Positions 47,801-57,972 of a stretch of DNA of 64,000 nucleotides are shown in pieces. How positions within the stretch are numbered: the first letter of the stretch is position 1; each line of letters opens with the position of its first letter. Under the pieces are notes generated by a model. That model had not been told where the DNA came from and did no database searches. It saw only the letters and a list, made by a program, of their open reading frames with translations. Both the position numbers and the translations under genes were made by a program. The stretch is from an uncultured Candidatus Berkelbacteria bacterium. GTDB taxonomy: Bacteria; Patescibacteriota; UBA1384; UBA12157. Where the stretch lies: NCBI GenBank assembly GCA_903877885.1, contig CAIRFN010000006.1, positions 3,342 through 67,341 on the forward strand, read 5' to 3'.

Positions 47801-47986
47801 AAAATGCCGGAGAGTTTTTCAACGGAACCGATTGAGATGACACGATTAAGAGCTATTGACGACGGTCGTGGTAGGCCGGAGTCAATGATATATGATGATT
47901 TGGCGACTGGTACCGATTTAAACAAACCTCATATGTATGGCGGCTCCGCTTGGCACAGATCGCTAGAAGGTAGGACTAATGGGTGA
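44894..47986 (+). CDS. Large hypothetical protein (1030 aa) heading the tandem paralog array
   Basis: Long ORF with a good RBS (AAGGAGAATAAAAGGATG); its stop overlaps the start of the first paralog. No domain recognisable by eye. Confidence 0.5.
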   Translation: MGEFQNHSVEFDNLGGLTSEDRQAILMRGDLRKRSQELKVNALNLNPPESTPEHKAYYERILSLVNREADGEEKMDPAQAEATLDEKEKGMRVKIATMGEIAPNFGGYLYANLAKYEQLAGQDFSEDLSKSKEYMDRATHIPKLVPSNLLPDAITLGIQKRFLDTQELPSKEKIAQAAQMDPELIKSYALVLHENEREDFLKLIPEDQRRQIGIELDTSVSSVLHQSLIEKNTPEEEQRRQVRMRLFRELRSSLSETDPSDKKTVQLMGEALGTLGEDARQLILELIRDETDSREEGVDRQTDHLPRIMKVMIDNFDDWRGNDIILQTAASPELNHHMSIYLFGKLVDKGYLPKDVADWWNTRKTTASNEGREPDDEKFRLDILKGTVDELGVIPNKEILEFISKDENWQGDDGQTVPVSERFERIASSQAEFSGVKSNSELVDLLKNNENKAMIYFLLHGGDDRFNLINNYSFDKFKEMLGLISDLEINERPIQSFKETLLNSGMNEGQANDVITRLRAGHFPLPNSQQAYQEVSFEISENAALNNANGEIGQVLGKDQLGVVLTFPMYREYLEADGSEQAQEMFARMQQATTFTDRQAIIAEINGLYPDFQERIKNDLQDSWIKFGDKMVIETTLDQVLTSDQIQIHGEELLPKLDAKRIDLKRINKELLIALKSENRNVSDLNSEISRKKKARTGLEQGLARQTDVGKRGELQRKIDEIDSDIANLETRRAAVGEMKVDDRFTGLSKEEKEAEVDRLSQEIIALTEKSPSAIFTFITMQVLGEQRLRENDITLVKEMESHLQGPFQTINDVLTYERPKTESKKRTRVGLQYLDKVDRLATMVRFADSKICCFSSSNYEMRVQHNTPNKIWVASINKDPMSFVLSMEMPQVQTDQPGKKVNENIGFIFGSFAQDNEGKLGVMMNGIYYAPGIEDARQVEQIMGGVEKIFEGLPINTEVIATQYGGSVKMPESFSTEPIEMTRLRAIDDGRGRPESMIYDDLATGTDLNKPHMYGGSAWHRSLEGRTNG

Positions 47987-48878
47987 AAATTTAGAGCCTT
48001 TTGAAATTCAACGCGAGGCATTAGCTGAAAGATTAAAACTCAAAGAACAATGGGAGTCACAGATTAGTATTCTTAATGAAACAGGAATTCTACAATTGCT
48101 CCCAGAAAGTCAGGAGCTAGGGATCGTTGGTATTGATGGTGAAGAATATCCAATTCCAGATTATAAAGAAATCATAGATCGTCTTACACCAGAAAAAGCA
48201 CAAATTCTGGAGCAGAAAATTGAACAAGGGTTTAGTAAAATGCTATTAGTGCCTTTTGGTATGTCCATGGAGACCTTAGCTCAAAGGTACAGAGAAGTAG
48301 TTCTTAAAAAAAGTAATGAAGAAACTCTTTTGGATACTGATGGTTTAAGGATTGAGTTAGACAAAAATAACCCCTTCCCAAACCTAATATCCCTGAACAC
48401 TGACATCGATAAAAGACTGTCCTACTATCCAAGTAATTTTGAGGAGCAAGAGGGCTTCACTAAGTCTGAGATACTCAGTAGAGGTGCCGGGTTTAAGATC
48501 GAGTTTATCGAGGATCGACCAGACTTATCTGATAACCGGCAAGCTCAAGGTGGAAGATTCAGTCCACCATCCAGGAGTATGCCAGCCAGGTATCTAGAGA
48601 TAATCCAGAACGATGAAAACATGTCGAATGAACAAGGATGGACGATGGAAACGTGGTTAACATATGCTATTACGAATTTAAAAGAAAGAAACCAACAAAT
48701 TGATAGTAATCGTTGGGGAAAGTTTTCTTGGCTTTTGGGCGCCTATTTCCCAGCACAAGCTCCTAGTGTGCCAATAGTGATGTATGCAGGTTGGTCTAAA
48801 GGCAAAGCAGAATTATTTAGTGGTGAATTTGATGATAGGTCAACCAACGCTAGTCTACGTACTTCAGTGGAGATATAA
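47979..48878 (+). CDS. Tandem paralog 1 of the 7-member family (no variable repeat)
   Basis: Conserved N-terminus LEPFEIQREALAERLKLKEQWESQISILNETGILQLLPESQELGIVGIDGEEYPIP; C-terminus ...ASLRTSVEI. Confidence 0.6.
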   Translation: MGENLEPFEIQREALAERLKLKEQWESQISILNETGILQLLPESQELGIVGIDGEEYPIPDYKEIIDRLTPEKAQILEQKIEQGFSKMLLVPFGMSMETLAQRYREVVLKKSNEETLLDTDGLRIELDKNNPFPNLISLNTDIDKRLSYYPSNFEEQEGFTKSEILSRGAGFKIEFIEDRPDLSDNRQAQGGRFSPPSRSMPARYLEIIQNDENMSNEQGWTMETWLTYAITNLKERNQQIDSNRWGKFSWLLGAYFPAQAPSVPIVMYAGWSKGKAELFSGEFDDRSTNASLRTSVEI

Positions 48879-48880
48879 CT

Positions 48881-49798
48881 ATGAATAATGAATCATTACA
48901 ACCATTTGAAATTCAACGTGAAGCGTTAGCTGAGCGATTGAATCTAAGAGAACAGTGGGAATCACAAGTTAAAATCTTGAATGAGACTGGTATTTTGGAG
49001 ATCCTTCCAGAGGCCCAAGAGTTGGGAATCATTGGTATTGACGGTCGAGAGCATCCAGTACCAGATTTTCAGGAAATTATGTCTCGAATTTCGCCGGAGC
49101 AGATGGAAGTCTTAGAGAAAAAGAATGAGCAAGGATTCAATAAAATGGTCCTAGTTCCTTTTGCTGTACCGCTAGACATATTGATTGATCGATACAAAAA
49201 GCTTCTTATTGAAAAAGATGCGGAAGGATCACTCTCATCAACTGATGGTTCAAAACTTAATCTCGATCGCGACCAACCAATCTATGTTTGGGACAAATAT
49301 ACCGGTGCTGATGCAAGCGGTGAGTTAGTTTATTTCCCGAATACATTTGATCAACAAAATCACGGTGGTAAAACAAAAAATACCCTAATACAAGAAGGTA
49401 AATCTTGGCAATTTGAATTACTTGAAGAAAATATTAATATCCCTGCTAAAGGTCAGGGAGAGATACTTGACGGCCGCAAACAACTAGAAGCCGGACAATC
49501 ACCAAATCAATATTTAAAAGAATTACAAATCGATCCTCAATATCAAAATGAGGTCGGCTTGACACCAGAAGCATGGTTGGTTTTAGCTATAACCCAATTA
49601 AAAGAAAACCATGGCCAAATTGACGATTATCAAGGTCAAGGCAAAATAAATTTTCTTACGGGTGCCTATTTCCCCGGTTCTGACAGTGTCCCGCGCGCGC
49701 GCTGGAGCCGTGACGGTCGTCGGGCGTTCTTGGACAGGAGCGTTCCCTCTGGCTCGCTTTCGAGCATTGGGTGTCGCTCCTCGGTGGAAATTCAGTAA
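48881..49798 (+). CDS. Tandem paralog 2; DGR target gene carrying variable repeat VR1 at its 3' end
   Basis: Same conserved N-terminus. The last ~38 codons (…VPRARWSRDGRRAFLDRSVPSGSLSSIGCRSSVEIQ) are the VR copy of the template repeat. Confidence 0.7.
   Translation: MNNESLQPFEIQREALAERLNLREQWESQVKILNETGILEILPEAQELGIIGIDGREHPVPDFQEIMSRISPEQMEVLEKKNEQGFNKMVLVPFAVPLDILIDRYKKLLIEKDAEGSLSSTDGSKLNLDRDQPIYVWDKYTGADASGELVYFPNTFDQQNHGGKTKNTLIQEGKSWQFELLEENINIPAKGQGEILDGRKQLEAGQSPNQYLKELQIDPQYQNEVGLTPEAWLVLAITQLKENHGQIDDYQGQGKINFLTGAYFPGSDSVPRARWSRDGRRAFLDRSVPSGSLSSIGCRSSVEIQ
49676..49789 (+). repeat. DGR variable repeat VR1
   Basis: ~114 bp matching the template repeat at 54708..54821, except at the template's adenine positions (all 17 differences fall on them). 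Confidence 0.8.
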
Positions 49799-49893
49799 TT
49801 TGATATTTGGCTTTTAAACTTTCTTTTTTCTTTATCTTTGATTCGGTATCCCGCCTTCGGCGGGCCACTGCAAAAATTTTAAAGGAGATAGAT

Positions 49894-50781
49894 ATGGAGA
49901 GTAATATGAGTGAAAATCTTCAACCATTTGAAATACAGCGCGAAGCACTTGCTGAACGGCTAAAACTCAAAGACCAGTGGGCATCACAGGTTAAGATGCT
50001 GAATGAAGCGGGTGTTTTGGAATTGCTTCCAGAGAGTCAGGAGCTAGGAATTATCGGAATTGATGGACAAGAATATGCAATACCTAGTTATGAACAAATT
50101 TTAGGTCGTATTACTCAAGGAAAAGCTGAGATTTTAGAAAATCAAACAGAAAACGGTTATAAGCAATTAATTTTAACTCCTTTCGCAATGCCTTTGAGGC
50201 AACTGTGTAAATTAGTTGAAGGATCATTTAAGAAAGTCTTATCAGAAAACCAAGTTGTTGATGCTTATGGAAGTGATGAAAGAATCAATTCTGATAACTT
50301 TATTGAAGATAATGGAAATATTCTCGATTCCGATATTAACGGAGAAATGGTTTACTACCCAAACTCAGACGATAGCAAAGACGGTTTGACAAAAATAGAT
50401 TGCATTAAAGAAAATGGTGGTTGGGAAATTGATTTTATTGCCAAAGAACCTCAGAAATACATACAAGATATCAACAAGCAAAAAAAGGCCATGGTGCAAG
50501 GTGGATTTAGAGGATTAACTCTTGAAAGCTGGTTGACTCAGTCAATGAATTTTTTCCAGAACGAGAAAAAGTTTTCAGATTATCTCGAACCATGTCTTTT
50601 GGCGGGATCGTCTCTGCGAGAGAAGAGGACTATCCCGGCAGCATGGTTTGCTGATAATCGATCTAATTACAAAGGTAAATATTTAGTAATAAAAACTTTA
50701 GAAGAAAATCGTAATCAAAATAAAGCATTTGGCGGTTTTTCGCAAACTGACGGAAATGCGCGTTTCAGCGTGAATTTATAA
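49894..50781 (+). CDS. Tandem paralog 3
   Basis: Start chosen at ATG 49894 after RBS AAAGGAG; the ORF track starts earlier at 49807. N-terminus MESNMSENLQPFEIQREALAERLKLKDQW... Confidence 0.6.
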   Translation: MESNMSENLQPFEIQREALAERLKLKDQWASQVKMLNEAGVLELLPESQELGIIGIDGQEYAIPSYEQILGRITQGKAEILENQTENGYKQLILTPFAMPLRQLCKLVEGSFKKVLSENQVVDAYGSDERINSDNFIEDNGNILDSDINGEMVYYPNSDDSKDGLTKIDCIKENGGWEIDFIAKEPQKYIQDINKQKKAMVQGGFRGLTLESWLTQSMNFFQNEKKFSDYLEPCLLAGSSLREKRTIPAAWFADNRSNYKGKYLVIKTLEENRNQNKAFGGFSQTDGNARFSVNL

Positions 50782-50790
50782 AGGGAAAAT

Positions 50791-51675
50791 ATGAATGAAT
50801 CCTTACAACCATTTGAAGTCCAAAGAGAAGCTTTAACTGAAAGGCTAAAACTCAAAGAGCAGTGGGAATCGCAAATAAAAATACTTAACGAAGTTGGAAT
50901 TCTTGAAATTCTACCTGAAAGTCAGGAGCTGGGAATCATTGGAATTGATCAAAAAGAATATCCAATCCCCAATTATGAAGATATTCTTAATAAAATTACT
51001 CAAGAACAAGCAGACTTAGTAACCCAAAAAACTGAACAGGGGTTTAATAAGTTAATATTGGTTCCCTTCGCTAAATCCCTTCAAGAAACCATAGAACTCT
51101 ATGCTAGATTATTAGTCCAAAAAAAACACGAAAAGACCCTTGTAGGGGCTGAAAACGAAGAATTTGACCTCGATATCAATAATCCTATCGTTGATATGAC
51201 TAAAAATGATTCTTTGTTTTATATTCCATCAAATGGAAAAAGATTCACGAAATCGGAATTTCTTGTAAGCGAAATGCGTTACCCGGGTTGGCAAGTCGCA
51301 TTAATCGAAGATTCTCCCGTCCCGTTCGAGAAAGATTCAGATAAAAAGGAATATGGCTACAAACAACCAAATGGCGATTTAGTAAGAGATTGGAGTCATC
51401 AGCTAAAGCTAATGAAAGAGAACGAATCTTATATCGGCGAAGAGGAAATATCTCCAGAGGCATGGCTTGCATATGCCATCACTAACTTAAAGGAAAAAAA
51501 CCAGCAGATTGATTTTCAAAATGAATCAATTGACAGGTGTTGGCTTGGTGCTTTTAGTAAAAAAGGAGAAACTGTTTACTCTTTATTTAAAAACAATCAA
51601 ATTAACTTTCATATCTATTCTCCCTTTGAGAGGGAGAAATCAAAAGCTATTTTTAGGTCGGTCGTACAGATTTAA
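50791..51675 (+). CDS. Tandem paralog 4
   Basis: MNESLQPFEVQREALTERLKLKEQWESQIKILNEVGILEILPESQELGIIGID... Confidence 0.6.
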   Translation: MNESLQPFEVQREALTERLKLKEQWESQIKILNEVGILEILPESQELGIIGIDQKEYPIPNYEDILNKITQEQADLVTQKTEQGFNKLILVPFAKSLQETIELYARLLVQKKHEKTLVGAENEEFDLDINNPIVDMTKNDSLFYIPSNGKRFTKSEFLVSEMRYPGWQVALIEDSPVPFEKDSDKKEYGYKQPNGDLVRDWSHQLKLMKENESYIGEEEISPEAWLAYAITNLKEKNQQIDFQNESIDRCWLGAFSKKGETVYSLFKNNQINFHIYSPFEREKSKAIFRSVVQI

Positions 51676-51704
51676 ACTATTTAAATTTAGATTGAAAAGG
51701 TAAT

Positions 51705-52592
51705 ATGAATGAATCATTACAACCATTTGAAATCCAAAGAGAATCCTTAGCTGAAAGACTAAAACTAAAAGACCAATGGGAATCTCAAATTCGTGTACTA
51801 AATGAGGCTGGTATTTTAGAAATTCTTCCTGAAAGCCAAGAATTGGGAGTTATTGGCGTTGATGGTCAGCAATATCCGATACCAGAATACTCTGATGTGC
51901 TTAACCAACTAACACCAGAAAATTTGGAATTATTAGAGGCAAAACAGGAAGAAGATTATAACAAACTAATTATTACGCCGTTTGCGATGCCTTTAAAACA
52001 ACTAATTGATAGATATTCTTCTCTTCTAAAGAGAAAAGACAAAACAGGAGAACTTAAAGATTCACAAGGAAATAGTATAAATATATCTGACGGTGATGAA
52101 CCTATTAAGTTACCTGTTAAACTTATCGAAGATGGTTACGATGACACACTCTTGTATTTTGGAAAATTGGGCGAAGAACAAGAGACTGGTAAAACAAAAA
52201 AGAAATCGATAGAGCAAGGAAAAATTTGGCACTTTTGTCTGGTTCAGGATACAAACTCTCTTGAAAACAAGAGGATTGAGACGAAAATCGATTCTTATCT
52301 TCAAGAAGGCGGTTTATCTGGATATACGCTTGAAGATTGGTTGATGCATGCAATTACGAATTTGCAAGAAAGTGGAAAACAAATAGATTGCACTGATTCC
52401 AAAGAAATAATCCCAAATTGGTTAATGGGATCGTACCTTCCAAAAGATGATTGTTATTTCAGAGCAGCCTATGATATTCACGATCCCTCTTCTACTGGCG
52501 CTGTCATCGGCGGCGCAAAAGGAGAAATTTTGAAAAGTCGAAAGAATTTTATTAATTTTAGAAACTTGATTGAGCTAGGAAGCAATTTATGA
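51705..52592 (+). CDS. Tandem paralog 5
   Basis: MNESLQPFEIQRESLAERLKLKDQWESQIRVLNEAGILEILPESQELGVIGVDG... Confidence 0.6.
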   Translation: MNESLQPFEIQRESLAERLKLKDQWESQIRVLNEAGILEILPESQELGVIGVDGQQYPIPEYSDVLNQLTPENLELLEAKQEEDYNKLIITPFAMPLKQLIDRYSSLLKRKDKTGELKDSQGNSINISDGDEPIKLPVKLIEDGYDDTLLYFGKLGEEQETGKTKKKSIEQGKIWHFCLVQDTNSLENKRIETKIDSYLQEGGLSGYTLEDWLMHAITNLQESGKQIDCTDSKEIIPNWLMGSYLPKDDCYFRAAYDIHDPSSTGAVIGGAKGEILKSRKNFINFRNLIELGSNL

Positions 52593-53506
52593 ATGAATCC
52601 TTGCAACCTTTTGAAACCCAGTGTGAGGCACTTGCCGAACGATTAAAACTCAAGGAACAGTGGGAATCACAGGTTCAGTTTCTCAATGAAGTAGGTATTT
52701 TAGAATTATTACCTGAATCGCAAGAATTGGGCATTGTTGGAATTGATGGTCGGGAATACCCAGTTCCTGAATATTCGGAGATAATGCAAAAAATCACCCC
52801 GGAAAAGGCGGAGATTTTGGAAAGAAAATCCGAACAAGGATTTAATAAAATGCTCTTAGTGCCTTTCGCGATACCTTTAGAAAGGTTGATAGATCGTTAT
52901 GAACGAGAATTAGTTAAACAATCTGAAAATGGCGGTGTAATCAATTCTAATGGTGAAAAGATAGAAATTAATCCGAAAAATCCAATAACTTTTATGGATA
53001 ATGAATTTAAAAGCTCAGATCTAACTAAAAAGTTAGCCTACTACCCAACTCATCCCGATTATGGTGGCGAAACGAAATCAGAAATAATTTCAAAAGATAG
53101 CCCCTGGAAATTTCATTTTGTTGAAGATTTAGACCATATTCCTCAGCAAGAGGAAGGTCAAACTATTGGCGGCAGAAAACAGCTTGAAACAGGTATGAGT
53201 CCAAGACAATATTTACTTCAGGTACAACGAAATGCTATGTATTCGAACGAACAAGGTATGACACCAGAAGACTGGCTTTGTAATGCAATTTTAAATTTAA
53301 GAAATAACGGAAAGCAAATTGATAGCGCTGGAAGAAACGGTCAAACTTGTTATTTAATCGGTTCTGGTTATCAATATGGCCCGTCAGGTGAAGAAATAGC
53401 TAGTGCTGGATGGGGTCGCATAAAAAGTGATTCTGCTTTTTTGGGTGCCGACTTCAATAGTGAATCACAACAAAATTTTGGCGTTAGAACTGTAGTAGAA
53501 ATCTAA
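52589..53506 (+). CDS. Tandem paralog 6
   Basis: MNESLQPFETQCEALAERLKLKEQWESQVQFLNEVGILELLPESQELGIVGIDG...; C-terminus ...NFGVRTVVEI. Confidence 0.6.
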   Translation: MNESLQPFETQCEALAERLKLKEQWESQVQFLNEVGILELLPESQELGIVGIDGREYPVPEYSEIMQKITPEKAEILERKSEQGFNKMLLVPFAIPLERLIDRYERELVKQSENGGVINSNGEKIEINPKNPITFMDNEFKSSDLTKKLAYYPTHPDYGGETKSEIISKDSPWKFHFVEDLDHIPQQEEGQTIGGRKQLETGMSPRQYLLQVQRNAMYSNEQGMTPEDWLCNAILNLRNNGKQIDSAGRNGQTCYLIGSGYQYGPSGEEIASAGWGRIKSDSAFLGADFNSESQQNFGVRTVVEI

Positions 53507-53515
53507 AGGAATATT

Positions 53516-54421
53516 ATGACAGAAAACTTACAACCATTCGAAATTCAACGCGAAGCATTTGCCGAGCGGTTAAATCTGAAAGAACAATGGGAATCACAGG
53601 TCAAAATACTTAATGAAGTAGGTATTCTTGAGATACTGCCCGAAAGTCAGGAATTAGGGATCATTGGTATTGACGGTCAAGAGTATCCAGTACCAGATTT
53701 CCAGGAAATTATGTCTCGAATTACCCCAGAACAGATGGAAGTTTTAGAAAAGAAAAATGAGCAAGGTTTTAACAAAATGCTTATTACTCCCTTTGGCATG
53801 CCTCTGGACATCCTAATTAGTAGGTATAAAGAACTCTTACTTAAAAAAGATTCTGAAAGCACGTTACTGGCTACCGATGGCTCGAAACTTGATCTTGATA
53901 GAAATGAACCAACATGGGTTTGGGAAGGATACAACGGTGCTGACGCAAACGGAGGGCTAGTTTATTTTCCAGAAAGCTTCACCCAAAATCATGAGGGGCA
54001 AACTAAACAAGAGATATTGGCTAACTCAGGTGCTTTCAAAATCGAGTTTATTGAAGATACGCCAGACATGCCTCGAAACGAACAAACTCAAGGCGGCCGC
54101 ATTAAACCTACTCCAGGTAAAAAAGCGTCTCAGTATCTTGAAATCATGCAAAACGATGAAAATATGACCAACGAGCATGGTCTCACCCCTGAAACATGGC
54201 TGACTTATGCTATTACTAACTTAAAAGAAAGAAACCAACAAATAGATGACTGGCAAGGTCAAGGTAAGGGTTCCTGGCTTACCGGTGCTTATTTCCCGGC
54301 TTCTGGCTTTGTCCCGTGCGCGGACTGGGACCGTGACGCTCGTCTGGCGTACTTGGACGGGAGCGGTCCCTCTGTCTCGTTTTCGGGCTTTGGGTGTCGC
54401 TCCTCGGTGGAAATAAAATAG
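53516..54421 (+). CDS. Tandem paralog 7; DGR target gene carrying variable repeat VR2 at its 3' end
   Basis: Conserved N-terminus; C-terminal …VPCADWDRDARLAYLDGSGPSVSFSGFGCRSSVEIK is the VR copy. Confidence 0.7.
   Translation: MTENLQPFEIQREAFAERLNLKEQWESQVKILNEVGILEILPESQELGIIGIDGQEYPVPDFQEIMSRITPEQMEVLEKKNEQGFNKMLITPFGMPLDILISRYKELLLKKDSESTLLATDGSKLDLDRNEPTWVWEGYNGADANGGLVYFPESFTQNHEGQTKQEILANSGAFKIEFIEDTPDMPRNEQTQGGRIKPTPGKKASQYLEIMQNDENMTNEHGLTPETWLTYAITNLKERNQQIDDWQGQGKGSWLTGAYFPASGFVPCADWDRDARLAYLDGSGPSVSFSGFGCRSSVEIK
54311..54412 (+). repeat. DGR variable repeat VR2
   Basis: Matches the template repeat except at its adenine positions; shares the identical 3' end GGGTGTCGCTCCTCGGTGGAA. 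Confidence 0.8.
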
Positions 54422-54707
54422 TTTTGAAATTTGTTCTTTAATTTTTCTTTATATTTTTAACTTTAGGTGCTGGCGTTAGCCAGCTAGACGCAATTGGGCT
54501 AATGAACCCGCCTTGGGCGGGGCGCCCAAAATTTGTTTTAGAAAATAAGTGAAACTTCGCTAACCGCGAACACTTTCGAAAAACAGCAAACAAATGAATT
54601 TCCACGTGAGCCCCGTTCATTCCGATTTGAGAGGAATGAAATATGAAAGCTAATTCTAAATTGGATGGCTGCGGCTGTCTGATGAATAATGCGGCGGGGT
54701 CACAAAT

Positions 54708-54821
54708 GGTTCTGACAATGTCCCGAACGCGAACTGGAACCGTGACGATCGTCAGGCGAACTTGAACAGGAACGATCCCTCTAACTCGAATTCGAACATT
54801 GGGTGTCGCTCCTCGGTGGAA
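54708..54821 (+). repeat. DGR template repeat (TR), non-coding, rich in AAC codons
   Basis: GGTTCTGACAATGTCCCGAACGCGAACTGGAACCGTGACGATCGTCAGGCGAACTTGAACAGGAACGATCCCTCTAACTCGAATTCGAACATTGGGTGTCGCTCCTCGGTGGAA. Every mismatch to VR1 and VR2 lies at an A of this copy. Confidence 0.85.
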
Positions 54822-54842
54822 GTTCTTTTTGTTTTAAGAAAG

Positions 54843-55884
54843 GGCTTAATATCAAAAACGTGCACCTAGTTTTGCAAAATATAGTTAATTATTTTGTCTT
54901 TTAGTTCTTTGGTAAAGCCTCTGTGAATGTTTACTTTTTGTTTTAGCCAACTAAAACTGCCCTCTAAAGAATTGGTGGTTTTGGGGATATTAAGTTCAGG
55001 ATATTTTAGATACGTAAAAAGATATGGCAAATTAGTTTTAAGGCTTCTAAAAGCCGCTCGCGTTCTCTTGTGAGTATAATGCCATCGGTTTGTAATTTGG
55101 TCGGTTGTTCTCTCCTTTAGAAACTCTTGCCACTTTTGGTGCCATAGGAGTAGTTTTTGGGTAAATTCTTTCTCGGTGGCATAGGTCAAAGTATCGCTAA
55201 TAGCTTTGAGTTCTAAGCTTGCTTCTAACTTTGGGTTTAAGGTTAAATAACGCTGGATAATTTGTTTTTGATGAAAATGACACATCTGGACTGGGACATC
55301 TAAAAATAGATTTCTCACTCCGGGTCTGCCATCCAAAACAATAGCTTTAAACTTAAAGCCTTGATTTTCTAGGGTAATTCTTCCCATTAGGTACTCGTTG
55401 ATTGTCTCGAATATAACAGGTTTGAAATAGAGATTACGTTTGAGCTCGACCGCTCTAAAAACCAGAAAACCGTATGCTCTGCCAAAGAAAGTAGCATCGA
55501 CAACAAAAACTAGACCATCAGGTGTGGTCTTCTTTTTAATGGTTTTCGCTTTCTCGATTTTAGTTCTAACCCAGTTGATGCTTTTGCCGTACTCGCAAGA
55601 GAGATTCTTGAGAGTCTGGCGCTTTCCGACATATTTTCCCAGGATAATTTGTTCTAATTTTTGAGGTCTGGATTTCGTTTGAAAATAACTTTGGCAATCT
55701 TTGCAAAAATATCTTTGCTTTTTTGCCGAGCGAGTACTTTTACCCTTTTTTACGCAACGATTTGAACTGCATTTAGGACAGTTTTTTTAACCATGTTTAC
55801 ATCCTCCTGTAAATTAACTTTAAATTACTGGTTCAAATATATCACATTCAGGTTAAGTTAGGTGCACGTTTTTGATATTAAGCC
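54843..55884 (-). mobile_element. IS1-family-like insertion sequence (1042 bp) with 26-bp terminal inverted repeats and 8-bp target-site duplication TAAGAAAG
   Basis: IRL GGCTTAATATCAAAAACGTGCACCTA (54843..54868) is the exact reverse complement of IRR (55859..55884). The direct repeat TAAGAAAG sits at 54835..54842 and 55885..55892. Confidence 0.8.
54866..55794 (-). CDS. IS1-like transposase (InsA-type zinc finger fused to DDE domain); reading frame requires a -1 shift in an A7 run at codon 4
   Basis: After RBS AGGAGG and ATG at 55794, the 0-frame stops after 14 codons. The -1 frame gives ...CPKCSSNRCVKKGKSTRSAKKQRYFCKDCQSYF... (the IS1 InsA C-x2-C…QRY-x-C-x2-C finger). It continues to ...TNSLEGSFSWLKQK... 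and a stop at 54866. Confidence 0.6.
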
Positions 55885-56202
55885 TAAGAAAGAGATCGAA
55901 TCCATCCGCCAAGCATGCGGCCGATTTCTCTTAAATCAGATTGCGCTTGGAAAATTTTGGTTTCATTCCCTAAATGCAGTTCCAAGCAGGCTCTTAGTTT
56001 CAGAGTAATTATTTCTAATCGGCCGGAAGCTTTAAGGAGATAAGAAGATTTTAGGGTTTTCGGCGCATTTTTAGCCATAATTAGCTCTTCAAGCAGATCC
56101 AAAATCGAATTTTCAAGACTCATGCCCAAAGAATAGCGCCATCTTTTTTCGAGCTTGGCGTTAAATTCAAGAATGAATTTATATAAATCGTAGGATTGAT
56201 TA

Positions 56203-56222
<20 letters not shown>
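55884..56222 (-). CDS. avd: DGR accessory variability determinant (Avd-like four-helix-bundle protein)
   Basis: 112 aa; ...RWRYSLGMSL... and C-terminal ...EIGRMLGGWIRSLS resemble Bordetella bAvd (…EVGRILGSWIARV…). Adjacent to the RT gene. Confidence 0.7.
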
Positions 56223-57214
<992 letters not shown>

Positions 57215-57246
57215 TTAAAACTTGCTCGCTTATAGTTTTTATAATA

Positions 57247-57972
57247 TCACCGCCTATTGTGTGCGGTTTCGATGAAGCGTTTGATTAGCAACTTAATACC
57301 AAGTTTTATAACCTGATAACCGTTCAATAAGCACCATAATAACGCCGGAAATATGACTCCCGTTAAAAACGTCTTGATTGTCTGGAAAAAGTTGTATTTC
57401 GAGTTTGCGACTAAACTCCGGTATAATCTCTCGTACTGGAATTTGTAGCCTTCGACCATTTTTTTGTTTAAATCAAGATAGGTCATAACCTGCATGGCCG
57501 CGTTTTCGTCTACGATTCGACGCATCATTTCCCGACTTTCCCTTTGGGACAAAATATTCAGACTTCCTTCCCAAAGTATTTCTCGATCAATAACGGCCAC
57601 CTTTTCATGAATCAATCCGGGTAGTTGGAAAACACAGACTCCCAACTCTTCGTAATCTTTTATAGCACAGGAAATCTCTGTTCGCATTAGATAGTCGTGC
57701 TCCTCAAGAGGACGAGTGAAGATAAAAACACAAATATTTCTTCTTCGAAGCTCAGTTAATGATTTTCTGAAAAACTCCGATCGGAACTTGCTTACAAATG
57801 GACTGTAAATGATAATTTCTTTTTTGGCCTTGAGCATATCTTGGACGAAAACCCGATAAAATGTCCTTTCATTATAAAGATCGAGTTTTTGTAATTCATG
57901 TAATTTTTTGGCGTCGATTTCGTTCTGGATGTTCATCAAATGTTGTCTATGCGCCGGCGAATTAATTGGCAT
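57247..57972 (-). CDS. Phospholipase D-family (single HKD motif) nuclease-like protein with hydrophobic C-terminus
   Basis: ...LIHEKVAVIDREILWEGSLNI... = HxK(x)4D(x)6GSxN motif; 241 aa. Confidence 0.6.
   Translation of the reverse strand: MPINSPAHRQHLMNIQNEIDAKKLHELQKLDLYNERTFYRVFVQDMLKAKKEIIIYSPFVSKFRSEFFRKSLTELRRRNICVFIFTRPLEEHDYLMRTEISCAIKDYEELGVCVFQLPGLIHEKVAVIDREILWEGSLNILSQRESREMMRRIVDENAAMQVMTYLDLNKKMVEGYKFQYERLYRSLVANSKYNFFQTIKTFLTGVIFPALLWCLLNGYQVIKLGIKLLIKRFIETAHNRR

Follow-up and report, generated by a model that had tools for sequence, protein, structure and literature searches.

Frameshift control of transposase expression is textbook knowledge for the insertion sequences (ISs) IS1, IS3, IS5 and IS630, and in every case known to us the shift fuses two real open reading frames (ORFs). 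The IS256 family is described in ISfinder as having terminal inverted repeats (IRs) of ~24-41 bp that start with GG and target duplications of 8-9 bp, and the typical length of its members is 1.2-1.5 kb. Here we consider a stretch of 64,000 nucleotides of DNA from an uncultured Candidatus Berkelbacteria bacterium (contig CAIRFN010000006.1, positions 3,342 to 67,341, in the following called the window), in which an IS of 1042 bp lies between the template repeat (TR) and the accessory gene avd of a diversity-generating retroelement (DGR). Judged by its sequence, this element belongs to the IS256 family, in its zinc-finger branch (the IS1249-like group), and not to IS1, and we hold with good confidence that the best overall explanation of the locus is an intact, mobile IS256-type element in which programmed recoding limits the amount of transposase. 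The parts of the element that are needed for the argument are the following.

54843..55884, minus strand (that of the transposase): insertion sequence of the IS256 family (Zn-binding variant, IS1249-like), 1042 bp, with perfect IRs, a target duplication and a match to the family model NF048019
54843..54868: terminal IR distal to the transposase start, GGCTTAATATCAAAAACGTGCACCTA, which holds the transposase stop TAG at 54868..54866
55859..55884: terminal IR proximal to the transposase start, the last base of which (C at 55884) provides the G in the new avd stop, TAG
54835..54842: left copy of the target-site duplication, TAAGAAAG
55885..55892: right copy of the target-site duplication, TAAGAAAG, spanning the last two avd codons and the TA of the stop
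55796..55813, minus strand: hairpin TTTACA-GGAGGA-TGTAAA with the Shine-Dalgarno (SD) sequence in its loop and a 6-bp stem, ending 1 nt before the ATG
55750..55794, minus strand: ORF0 (ATG GTT AAA AAA ACT ...), 14 codons and a stop, serving as entry frame only
55782..55788, minus strand: slippery A7 run (T7 on the plus strand), the putative recoding site, invariant in 12 loci from 10 samples
54866..55783, minus strand: main frame of the transposase, -1 relative to the ATG, which together with 55794..55783 encodes the conceptual 309-aa product
55780..55694, minus strand: 4-Cys zinc ribbon of the transposase
55498, 55333 and 54964, minus strand: inferred catalytic residues D100, D155 and E278, with K285 seven residues past the E

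On the minus strand the start region of the transposase reads TTTACA-GGAGGA-TGTAAA-C-ATG-GTT-AAAAAAA-C-TGT-CCT-AAA-TGC, with GGAGGA at 55807..55802, the ATG at 55794..55792 and, after GTT, the A7 run at 55788..55782. The frame that encodes the zinc finger is -1 with respect to this ATG and is closed directly upstream by a TAA that overlaps GTT-AAA, and since it contains no ATG, GTG or TTG before Met138, gene callers give just a 173-aa fragment that lacks the first catalytic aspartate. A -1 shift on A7, or alternatively an mRNA longer by one A, connects ATG-GTT-AAA-AAA with AAC-TGT-CCT-AAA-TGC and results in a product of 309 aa. The frames are in other words as stated in the first-pass annotation of the window, according to which the transposase is readable only by way of a -1 slip on the A run just after a strong ribosome binding site and ATG. 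Two ways around such a slip were considered and rejected, namely a non-canonical in-frame start in this copy, where the TAA is separated from the first Cys by AAA and AAC only, and termination-reinitiation coupling from ORF0, which ends downstream of the first CxxC and is of a length that varies between 6 and 91 codons in relatives. A scan for sigma-70 promoters and terminators gave nothing convincing upstream of the transposase, and an Rfam scan of 53500-57500 at E <= 1 gave 0 hits.

The scheme that we propose is that ribosomes would start at the SD-preceded ATG, read ATG GTT AAA AAA and go on in the -1 frame (AAC TGT CCT AAA TGC ...). This shifted route alone would lead to the 309-aa protein with its zinc ribbon and DDE domain, and unshifted translation would stop after a peptide of 14 residues. 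The A run would then be a programmed recoding site holding transposase output very low and, unlike in IS1 or IS3, no upstream regulatory protein would be made.

The notion of a programmed event stems mainly from the relatives of the element. A search with the conceptual protein gave 1,971 homologues at E <= 1e-10, with hosts among Patescibacteria, Desulfobacterota, Nitrospirota, Campylobacterota and Bacteroidota, and the DNA of relatives of 43-70% identity was taken for 80 loci from species-representative genomes (the hosts including Patescibacteria, Syntrophorhabdus/Smithella, Nitrospirota and Sulfurovum/Sulfurimonas) and for 80 from JGI metagenomes. The frame of the start codon relative to the transposase was distributed as follows.

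Genome representatives: 66 non-redundant start regions, 31 needing -1, 35 needing +1 (or -2), 0 in frame
JGI metagenomes: 70 non-redundant start regions, 55 needing -1, 15 needing +1 (or -2), 0 in frame
Combined: 136 non-redundant start regions, 86 needing -1, 50 needing +1 (or -2), 0 in frame

If frames were random, finding none of 66 in frame would have a probability of ~2e-12, a figure that is illustrative only, the loci being related. Alternative starts in frame amount to one distant TTG in the genome set, and the JGI set is without any ATG, GTG or TTG. Among the 136 relatives the run is A7 in 101, A6 in 20, A8 in 11 and A5 in 4, and in 135 of them it is placed two to five codons past an SD-preceded ATG, usually beginning at codon 3 or 4, and one further locus (L029) has the run and no recognisable start codon. 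The ORF0 of the relatives is not conserved. The first CxxC, on the other side of the run, is encoded by codons that vary synonymously (the first Cys by TGT in 46 and TGC in 22 cases, the second by TGC in 38 and TGT in 30, and the Pro by CCA, CCT, CCG or CCC), and the fact that this motif is conserved with synonymous changes, though no start codon is found in its frame, argues that the zinc-finger frame is translated. It is nevertheless absent from all of the 120 best protein clusters, the calls of which begin at assorted downstream codons, for instance at MFCGS in the knuckle. Further out, a relative from Emticicia that is just 28% identical has A8 with an out-of-frame start, and the outgroup IS1249 proper (Collinsella) has an ordinary in-frame start, ATG AAG GCC GTT TAT TGC CCC TAC TGC. 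This family-wide comparison points to a requirement for recoding that would be kept by selection, and of the two options raised in the first-pass annotation, an expression-limiting programmed frameshift or a homopolymer sequencing error, the absence of any in-frame start among 136 relatives favours the former.

That the run is correctly read in this copy is indicated by other contigs carrying the same element. An exact-protein look-up of the 173-aa fragment gave 17 contigs, and in the 8 for which the DNA was compared, independent assemblies from 8 different samples, the 1042-bp element is identical throughout, A7 included. Four further contigs reached through the Avd protein, from two more samples, have the same start region, which brings the number to 12 loci and 10 samples. 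The reverse transcriptase (RT) gene of the DGR, on these same contigs, contains a (GA)n tract of 17, 18 or 20 units, and since A7 is invariant alongside a tract that does vary, we conclude that the run is genuine.

As to which machine would slip, RNA polymerase has in our estimate about an even chance of being the answer. In such transcriptional slippage the polymerase would add or drop an A in a fraction of the transcripts, in either direction, and this is the most economical explanation because close relatives need opposite shifts on the same kind of A run. Indeed near relatives may be just one base apart between the run and the Cys codon, as in ATG GGT A7 T TGT as opposed to ATG AGT A7 TGT, and yet need opposite corrections. 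A mixture of +1 and -1 directions at poly-A within one transposase family has been described as a sign of programmed transcriptional realignment, whereas genes with ribosomal frameshifts keep the direction of the shift among orthologues (Antonov et al. 2013, PMC3711429).

The alternative that comes closest is ribosomal recoding by -1 slippage of tRNA-Lys on AAA AAA A, possibly with the assistance of the SD sequence, and we regard it as the less probable of the two mechanisms but one to be taken seriously. The SD sequence used for initiation is found 14 nt upstream of the run, a distance at which an SD sequence stimulates the -1 shift of dnaX, and A7 is short for efficient slippage by a polymerase. 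T_AAA_AAA and AAA_AAA_A are furthermore among the A-rich heptamers that recur at predicted frameshift sites (PMC3711429). However, about one third of the relatives need +1 (or -2) with the same motif and the same SD spacing, no IS with +1 ribosomal frameshifting had been identified as of a 2016 review (Atkins et al., PMC5009743), and the mixed direction is precisely the published hallmark of realignment by the polymerase. It should also be mentioned that this copy has no downstream stimulatory structure that could be found.

The position of the SD sequence in a hairpin loop appears to be a recurrent feature as well. In 53% of 115 non-redundant relatives the ATG is preceded, at a distance of 0-4 nt, by a hairpin of 5 bp or more, compared to 19% in shuffles (with a maximum of 28% among 300 of them) and 26% in a control stretch upstream. 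The stems differ between clades, being TTTACA/TGTAAA, TTCAG/CTGAA, CTCA/TGAG, ACTCAGG/CCTGAGT, AACTAAAA/TTTTAGTT or TATTCA/TGAATA, which looks like covariation. These hairpins are weak (-2 to -6 kcal/mol), and probably act as a second brake that lowers initiation further. The one in this copy is AU-rich and ends 7 nt before the A run, and that it might stimulate slippage in the manner of the Roseiflexus elements is speculation by analogy.

Considerably less probable than either kind of slippage during expression is phase variation at the level of the DNA, by which the length of the run would change in replication, rare A8 'ON' copies would move and be selected against, and mostly 'OFF' copies would be retained. 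Poly-A is slippery for DNA polymerase too (PMC3711429), and both +1 and -1 states do occur among the relatives. Nonetheless an 'ON' allele is found neither in the 136 loci nor in the 120 best protein clusters, and A7 stays the same over the 10 samples in which the hypermutable (GA)n varies. A transposase that acts in cis would moreover be expected to spread the 'ON' allele, and yet freshly duplicated copies are 'OFF'.

It is likewise quite unlikely that the element is dead, with a frameshift mutation having inactivated the transposase and turned the copy into a decaying pseudogene. Such a view could draw on the annotated ORF of just 173 aa and on the fact that neither an empty site nor the birth of a new insertion has been seen directly: searches with the exact Avd protein, with the C-terminal ORF of the RT and, in the JGI metagenomes, with an exact 27-nt pattern of the empty junction returned no empty-site allele, and each of the 14-17 contigs with the locus carries the IS or ends within it. 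It is however in poor agreement with a 309-aa frame that is fully open apart from the shift and matches the family model over its full length, and with the perfect state of the ends. The two IR arms are 26 nt each and 100% complementary, and their motif occurs 2 times in the whole window where the chance expectation is 0, even at 3 mismatches. The first-pass annotation had noted the 1042-bp element, these repeats and a flanking 8-bp direct repeat, TAAGAAAG at 54835-54842 and 55885-55892, and all are present as described. The IRs start with GGCTTAAT, and the same type of start and an 8-bp duplication recur at a second insertion and in relatives. The second insertion (L006, 472-1513) lies inside an Acyl_transf_3 gene and has an 8-bp duplication of its own, CAATTTAT, and further flanks are seen in L001 (2504-3545), L007 and contig AZZbOG-n, so that base-identical copies are known in at least 3 flank contexts. 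Furthermore, the supposed defect is shared by every relative, including elements with several identical copies. Copies that are 100% identical and have 8-bp duplications occur in three unrelated genomes, namely the complete genome of Sulfurovum sp. CS9 (A6, -1 class), OY781066 (A5, +1 class) and a Syntrophorhabdus metagenome-assembled genome (A7, -1 class), and from these multi-copy elements, all of them dependent on recoding, it is evident that elements of this kind still transpose.

Some of the contigs have mixed flanks (L001 and AZZbOG-n), in which the DGR side continues into an HsdM side or into that of the acyltransferase, and these may be due either to rearrangements mediated by the IS or to chimeric assembly across the repeat. 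A description of the insertion as 'recent', as in the first-pass annotation, would have as its only basis that repeats and duplication are perfect and that the copies are identical. In a hypothetical circle junction (54843-54868 joined to 55859-55884) a TTGATA in the right end would come ~17-19 nt from a TAATAT in the left end, and from a reading of these letters the abutted ends of an IS256-type circle are a possible junction promoter.

An error of sequencing or assembly in the homopolymer, with A8 (or A5) as its actual length and an ordinary continuous ORF, is hardly credible, for although homopolymers are a classic source of error and one extra A would restore the frame, A7 is the same in all 12 loci, which come from 10 samples and from several assemblers, with variable (GA)n visible alongside, and 136/136 diverged relatives are out of frame too, in two directions.

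There remains the family itself, which the first-pass annotation had given as 'IS1-like'. The 309-aa product matches the NCBIfam model NF048019 ('IS256 family transposase, variant Zn-binding type') with 296.8 bits at a cutoff of 150, and the alignment is near full-length, residues 8-307 being placed on positions 2-299 of the 304 of the model. Against the IS1249 model the product scores 119 bits, and its residues 142-297 align to NF033543, the core model of IS256. Position 2 of NF048019 aligns to residue 8, which is within the first CxxC, and for this reason the hidden Markov model (HMM) has apparently been built from N-terminally truncated gene calls without the first Cys. The body of the protein has its motifs in the order D..DGxxG..QxCxFH..TNSLE..K, with the IS256-type signatures D100, D155 in LDGRPG followed by QMCHFH, E278 in TTNSLEG, and K285. 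An alignment of 20 sequences shows no variation at D100, D155 and K285, and either D or E at position 278, consistent with the catalytic roles that we infer for D100, D155 and E278. The GG start and 26-bp length of the IRs and the 8-bp duplication fit the general description of the IS256 family, and the one trait that deviates is the single uninterrupted transposase ORF, since the start codon is out of frame here and in all 136 relatives. As the whole subgroup has this property, it is no bar to membership of NF048019.

The models for IS1, in comparison, reach the zinc ribbon only. The IS1 transposase model NF033558 gives 26.7 bits at a cutoff of 100 and covers just residues 6-85, Pfam InsA (PF03811) gives 22.9 bits in the zinc ribbon region, which is under its gathering cutoff of 26.1, and the zinc-binding domain shared by IS1 and IS1595 (NF050000), which is common to several families, gives 28.4 bits at a cutoff of 28, and there is no match to Pfam DDE_Tnp_IS1 in the conceptual transposase. 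The InsA-like zinc finger pointed out in the first-pass annotation thus holds in so far as the N-terminal ribbon resembles InsA, but the rest of the protein is not that of IS1, and the likeness to the IS1 A6C motif that it also reported is likewise real as far as the letters go, but without an InsA-like upstream protein, ORF0 having 14 non-conserved codons. That the element should be an IS1 family member using the A6C frameshift between InsA and InsB' therefore has next to nothing to recommend it beyond this ribbon and the resemblance of TTAAAAAAAC to TTAAAAAAC of IS1, given the IS256-type body and a shift at codon 4 rather than between a DNA-binding and a catalytic ORF.

Several points weigh against the interpretation of the locus as a case of programmed recoding by slippage. 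Both the recoding and its level are deduced from conservation alone, and the 136 loci are phylogenetically related and cannot be counted as trials independent of each other. The runs of the clade, with 5-8 A, fall short of those listed for transcriptional realignment in bacteria, where An with n > 7 and Tn with n > 8 have been implicated (PMC3711429). The fold of the start region in this copy is not significant (z = -1.14) and a downstream stimulatory structure is lacking. A 38%-identical member on the K. pneumoniae plasmid p90CM2-MCR-253k (NZ_CP071820.1; L093, 1489-2427) has an in-frame TTG that is taken as start by PGAP, in addition to an out-of-frame ATG with A5, and some members may accordingly bypass recoding by means of such a TTG. 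Finally, as regards novelty, full-text searches and two comprehensive surveys held no report of recoding in IS256/IS1249 elements, but ISfinder may already list the feature. The plasmid member, which is labelled 'hypothetical protein' only, is located ~1.4 kb from mcr-2.3 and adjoins an ISSpu2-type IS630 element.

The surroundings of the insertion are made up of the following parts of the DGR.

54708..54825, plus strand: template repeat, matching the variable repeats (VRs) VR1 (49676-49793) and VR2 (54301-54412)
55884..56222, minus strand: avd, encoding the DGR accessory protein of 112 aa (PF22296, 41.2 bits at a cutoff of 40)
56203..57214, plus strand: DGR reverse transcriptase, in two ORFs split at (GA)18 (56722-56757), with RVT_1 matches on both halves

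The mismatches between TR and VR fall on adenines of the TR in 18/19 cases for VR1 and 21/21 for VR2, and with its TR/VR pair, avd and RT the DGR is genuine. With NF033474 Avd reaches 60.8 bits, below the cutoff of 80. The homology of TR and VR ends at 54821-54825. The first-pass annotation had put the element 13 bp after the template repeat, which is right for the start of the duplication (9-13 bp) but not for the IS proper, which begins 17-21 bp past the TR. It had also put the insertion precisely at the avd stop, with TAG rebuilt in place of TAA, and this is borne out: the stop is now TAG, formed by the last base of the IS (C at 55884) and the TA of the duplication, and TAA is recovered when the IS is excised in silico together with one of the two duplication copies. 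Since only the stop codon differs, the Avd protein is unaltered by the insertion. With ~1 kb of IS now separating the template repeat from avd and the RT, the insertion may or may not have uncoupled template transcription from the RT, as was suggested in the first-pass annotation; avd would lie antisense between TR and RT regardless of the IS. The avd gene on the minus strand and the RT on the plus strand point away from each other, with start codons that overlap by 20 nt (56203-56222), and the TR lies past the 3' end of avd, a layout that differs from the classical avd-TR-RT operon.

The RT alleles with (GA)17, (GA)18 and (GA)20 are all out of frame, and 16, 19 or 22 units would restore the frame, for which reason the RT could be phase-variable or decaying. 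Because the RT itself is out of frame, the DGR would be silent or phase-variable for a reason independent of the IS. VR2 and TR are identical in 5 IS-bearing contigs from 4 samples, so that no change is seen, an observation that is uninformative on later diversification. A GC-rich insert able to form a hairpin, CCCGCC-GGCA-GGCGGG (56777-56792), follows (GA)18 in the RT. In the region 47979-54421 seven paralogous genes of ~300 aa each form an array in tandem. Only two of them (48881..49798 and 53516..54421) have at their end a variable repeat that matches the TR, and no Pfam match was obtained for any array paralogue tested. About 80 nt past VR2, in AT-rich surroundings, there is a nested GC-rich hairpin at 54497-54540 (TTGGGC...CCCGCC-TTG-GGCGGG...GCCCAA), which may be a DGR target-site hairpin or a terminator.

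On balance we lean towards the broader proposition that an IS256-type clade spanning several phyla expresses its transposase only by way of recoding at a start-proximal A run, likely through bidirectional slippage of RNA polymerase, with the SD sequence in a hairpin loop and no functional upstream protein. In lying two to five codons past the start, with no functional ORF upstream, the site is unlike the known cases. Because the shift comes almost at once after initiation, its only evident role is to limit output, and if true this would constitute a start-proximal 'throttle' type of programmed recoding. Frameshift finders that look for pairs of ORFs, as well as current annotation, miss such an arrangement and leave truncated calls with 'hypothetical protein' labels, and since hundreds of members are called in this way, RefSeq plasmids included, the IS content of candidate-phyla-radiation genomes and others would be under-counted. 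The succession of SD hairpin, ATG, one codon and A7 would furthermore make a compact test system for the shortest homopolymer that allows useful slippage by polymerase or ribosome, and for its direction, and the locus documents an IS within a DGR the RT of which has a hypervariable (GA)n tract of its own.

In comparison with known systems, the element is closest to the IS256/IS1249 group (NF048019; IS1249 of Corynebacterium), with which it shares an HMM score above cutoff, a 4-Cys ribbon followed by a DDE core, the QxCxxH and TNxxE..K motifs, IRs starting with GG and an 8-bp duplication. However, its 1042 bp are less than the typical size in the IS256 family, and in IS256/IS1249 elements proper the transposase is a single ORF that is uninterrupted and begins at an in-frame ATG, whereas the present clade always has an out-of-frame ATG with the A run just after it. 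With IS3/IS911, where OrfA and OrfAB are related by a -1 ribosomal shift, there is a common principle in that recoding sets the level of transposase, but the A_AAA_AAG-type heptamer with downstream structure, the conserved direction and the regulatory OrfA of those elements have no counterpart here. IS1 (InsA/InsAB', with -1 at A6C) has a related zinc-ribbon N-terminus, a near-identical A-run site and a shift that limits the transposase. Its catalytic domain is nevertheless unrelated at the family level, and the IS1 shift joins a functional InsA repressor of 91 aa to InsB', whereas here the zinc finger lies downstream of the shift and the upstream frame is a non-conserved peptide of 14 codons. 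The elements of the IS630 and IS5 (DDE_Tnp_1) types and the Roseiflexus ISs resemble the present clade in having a homopolymer run, a mixture of +1 and -1 among orthologues and inferred slippage of RNA polymerase. Their sites, however, lie between two substantial ORFs and usually have longer runs or a 5'-adjacent GC-rich stem-loop, whereas the site described here is found at codons 2-6 (3-5 in this copy) and combines runs of 5-8 nt with a weak, AU-rich SD hairpin.

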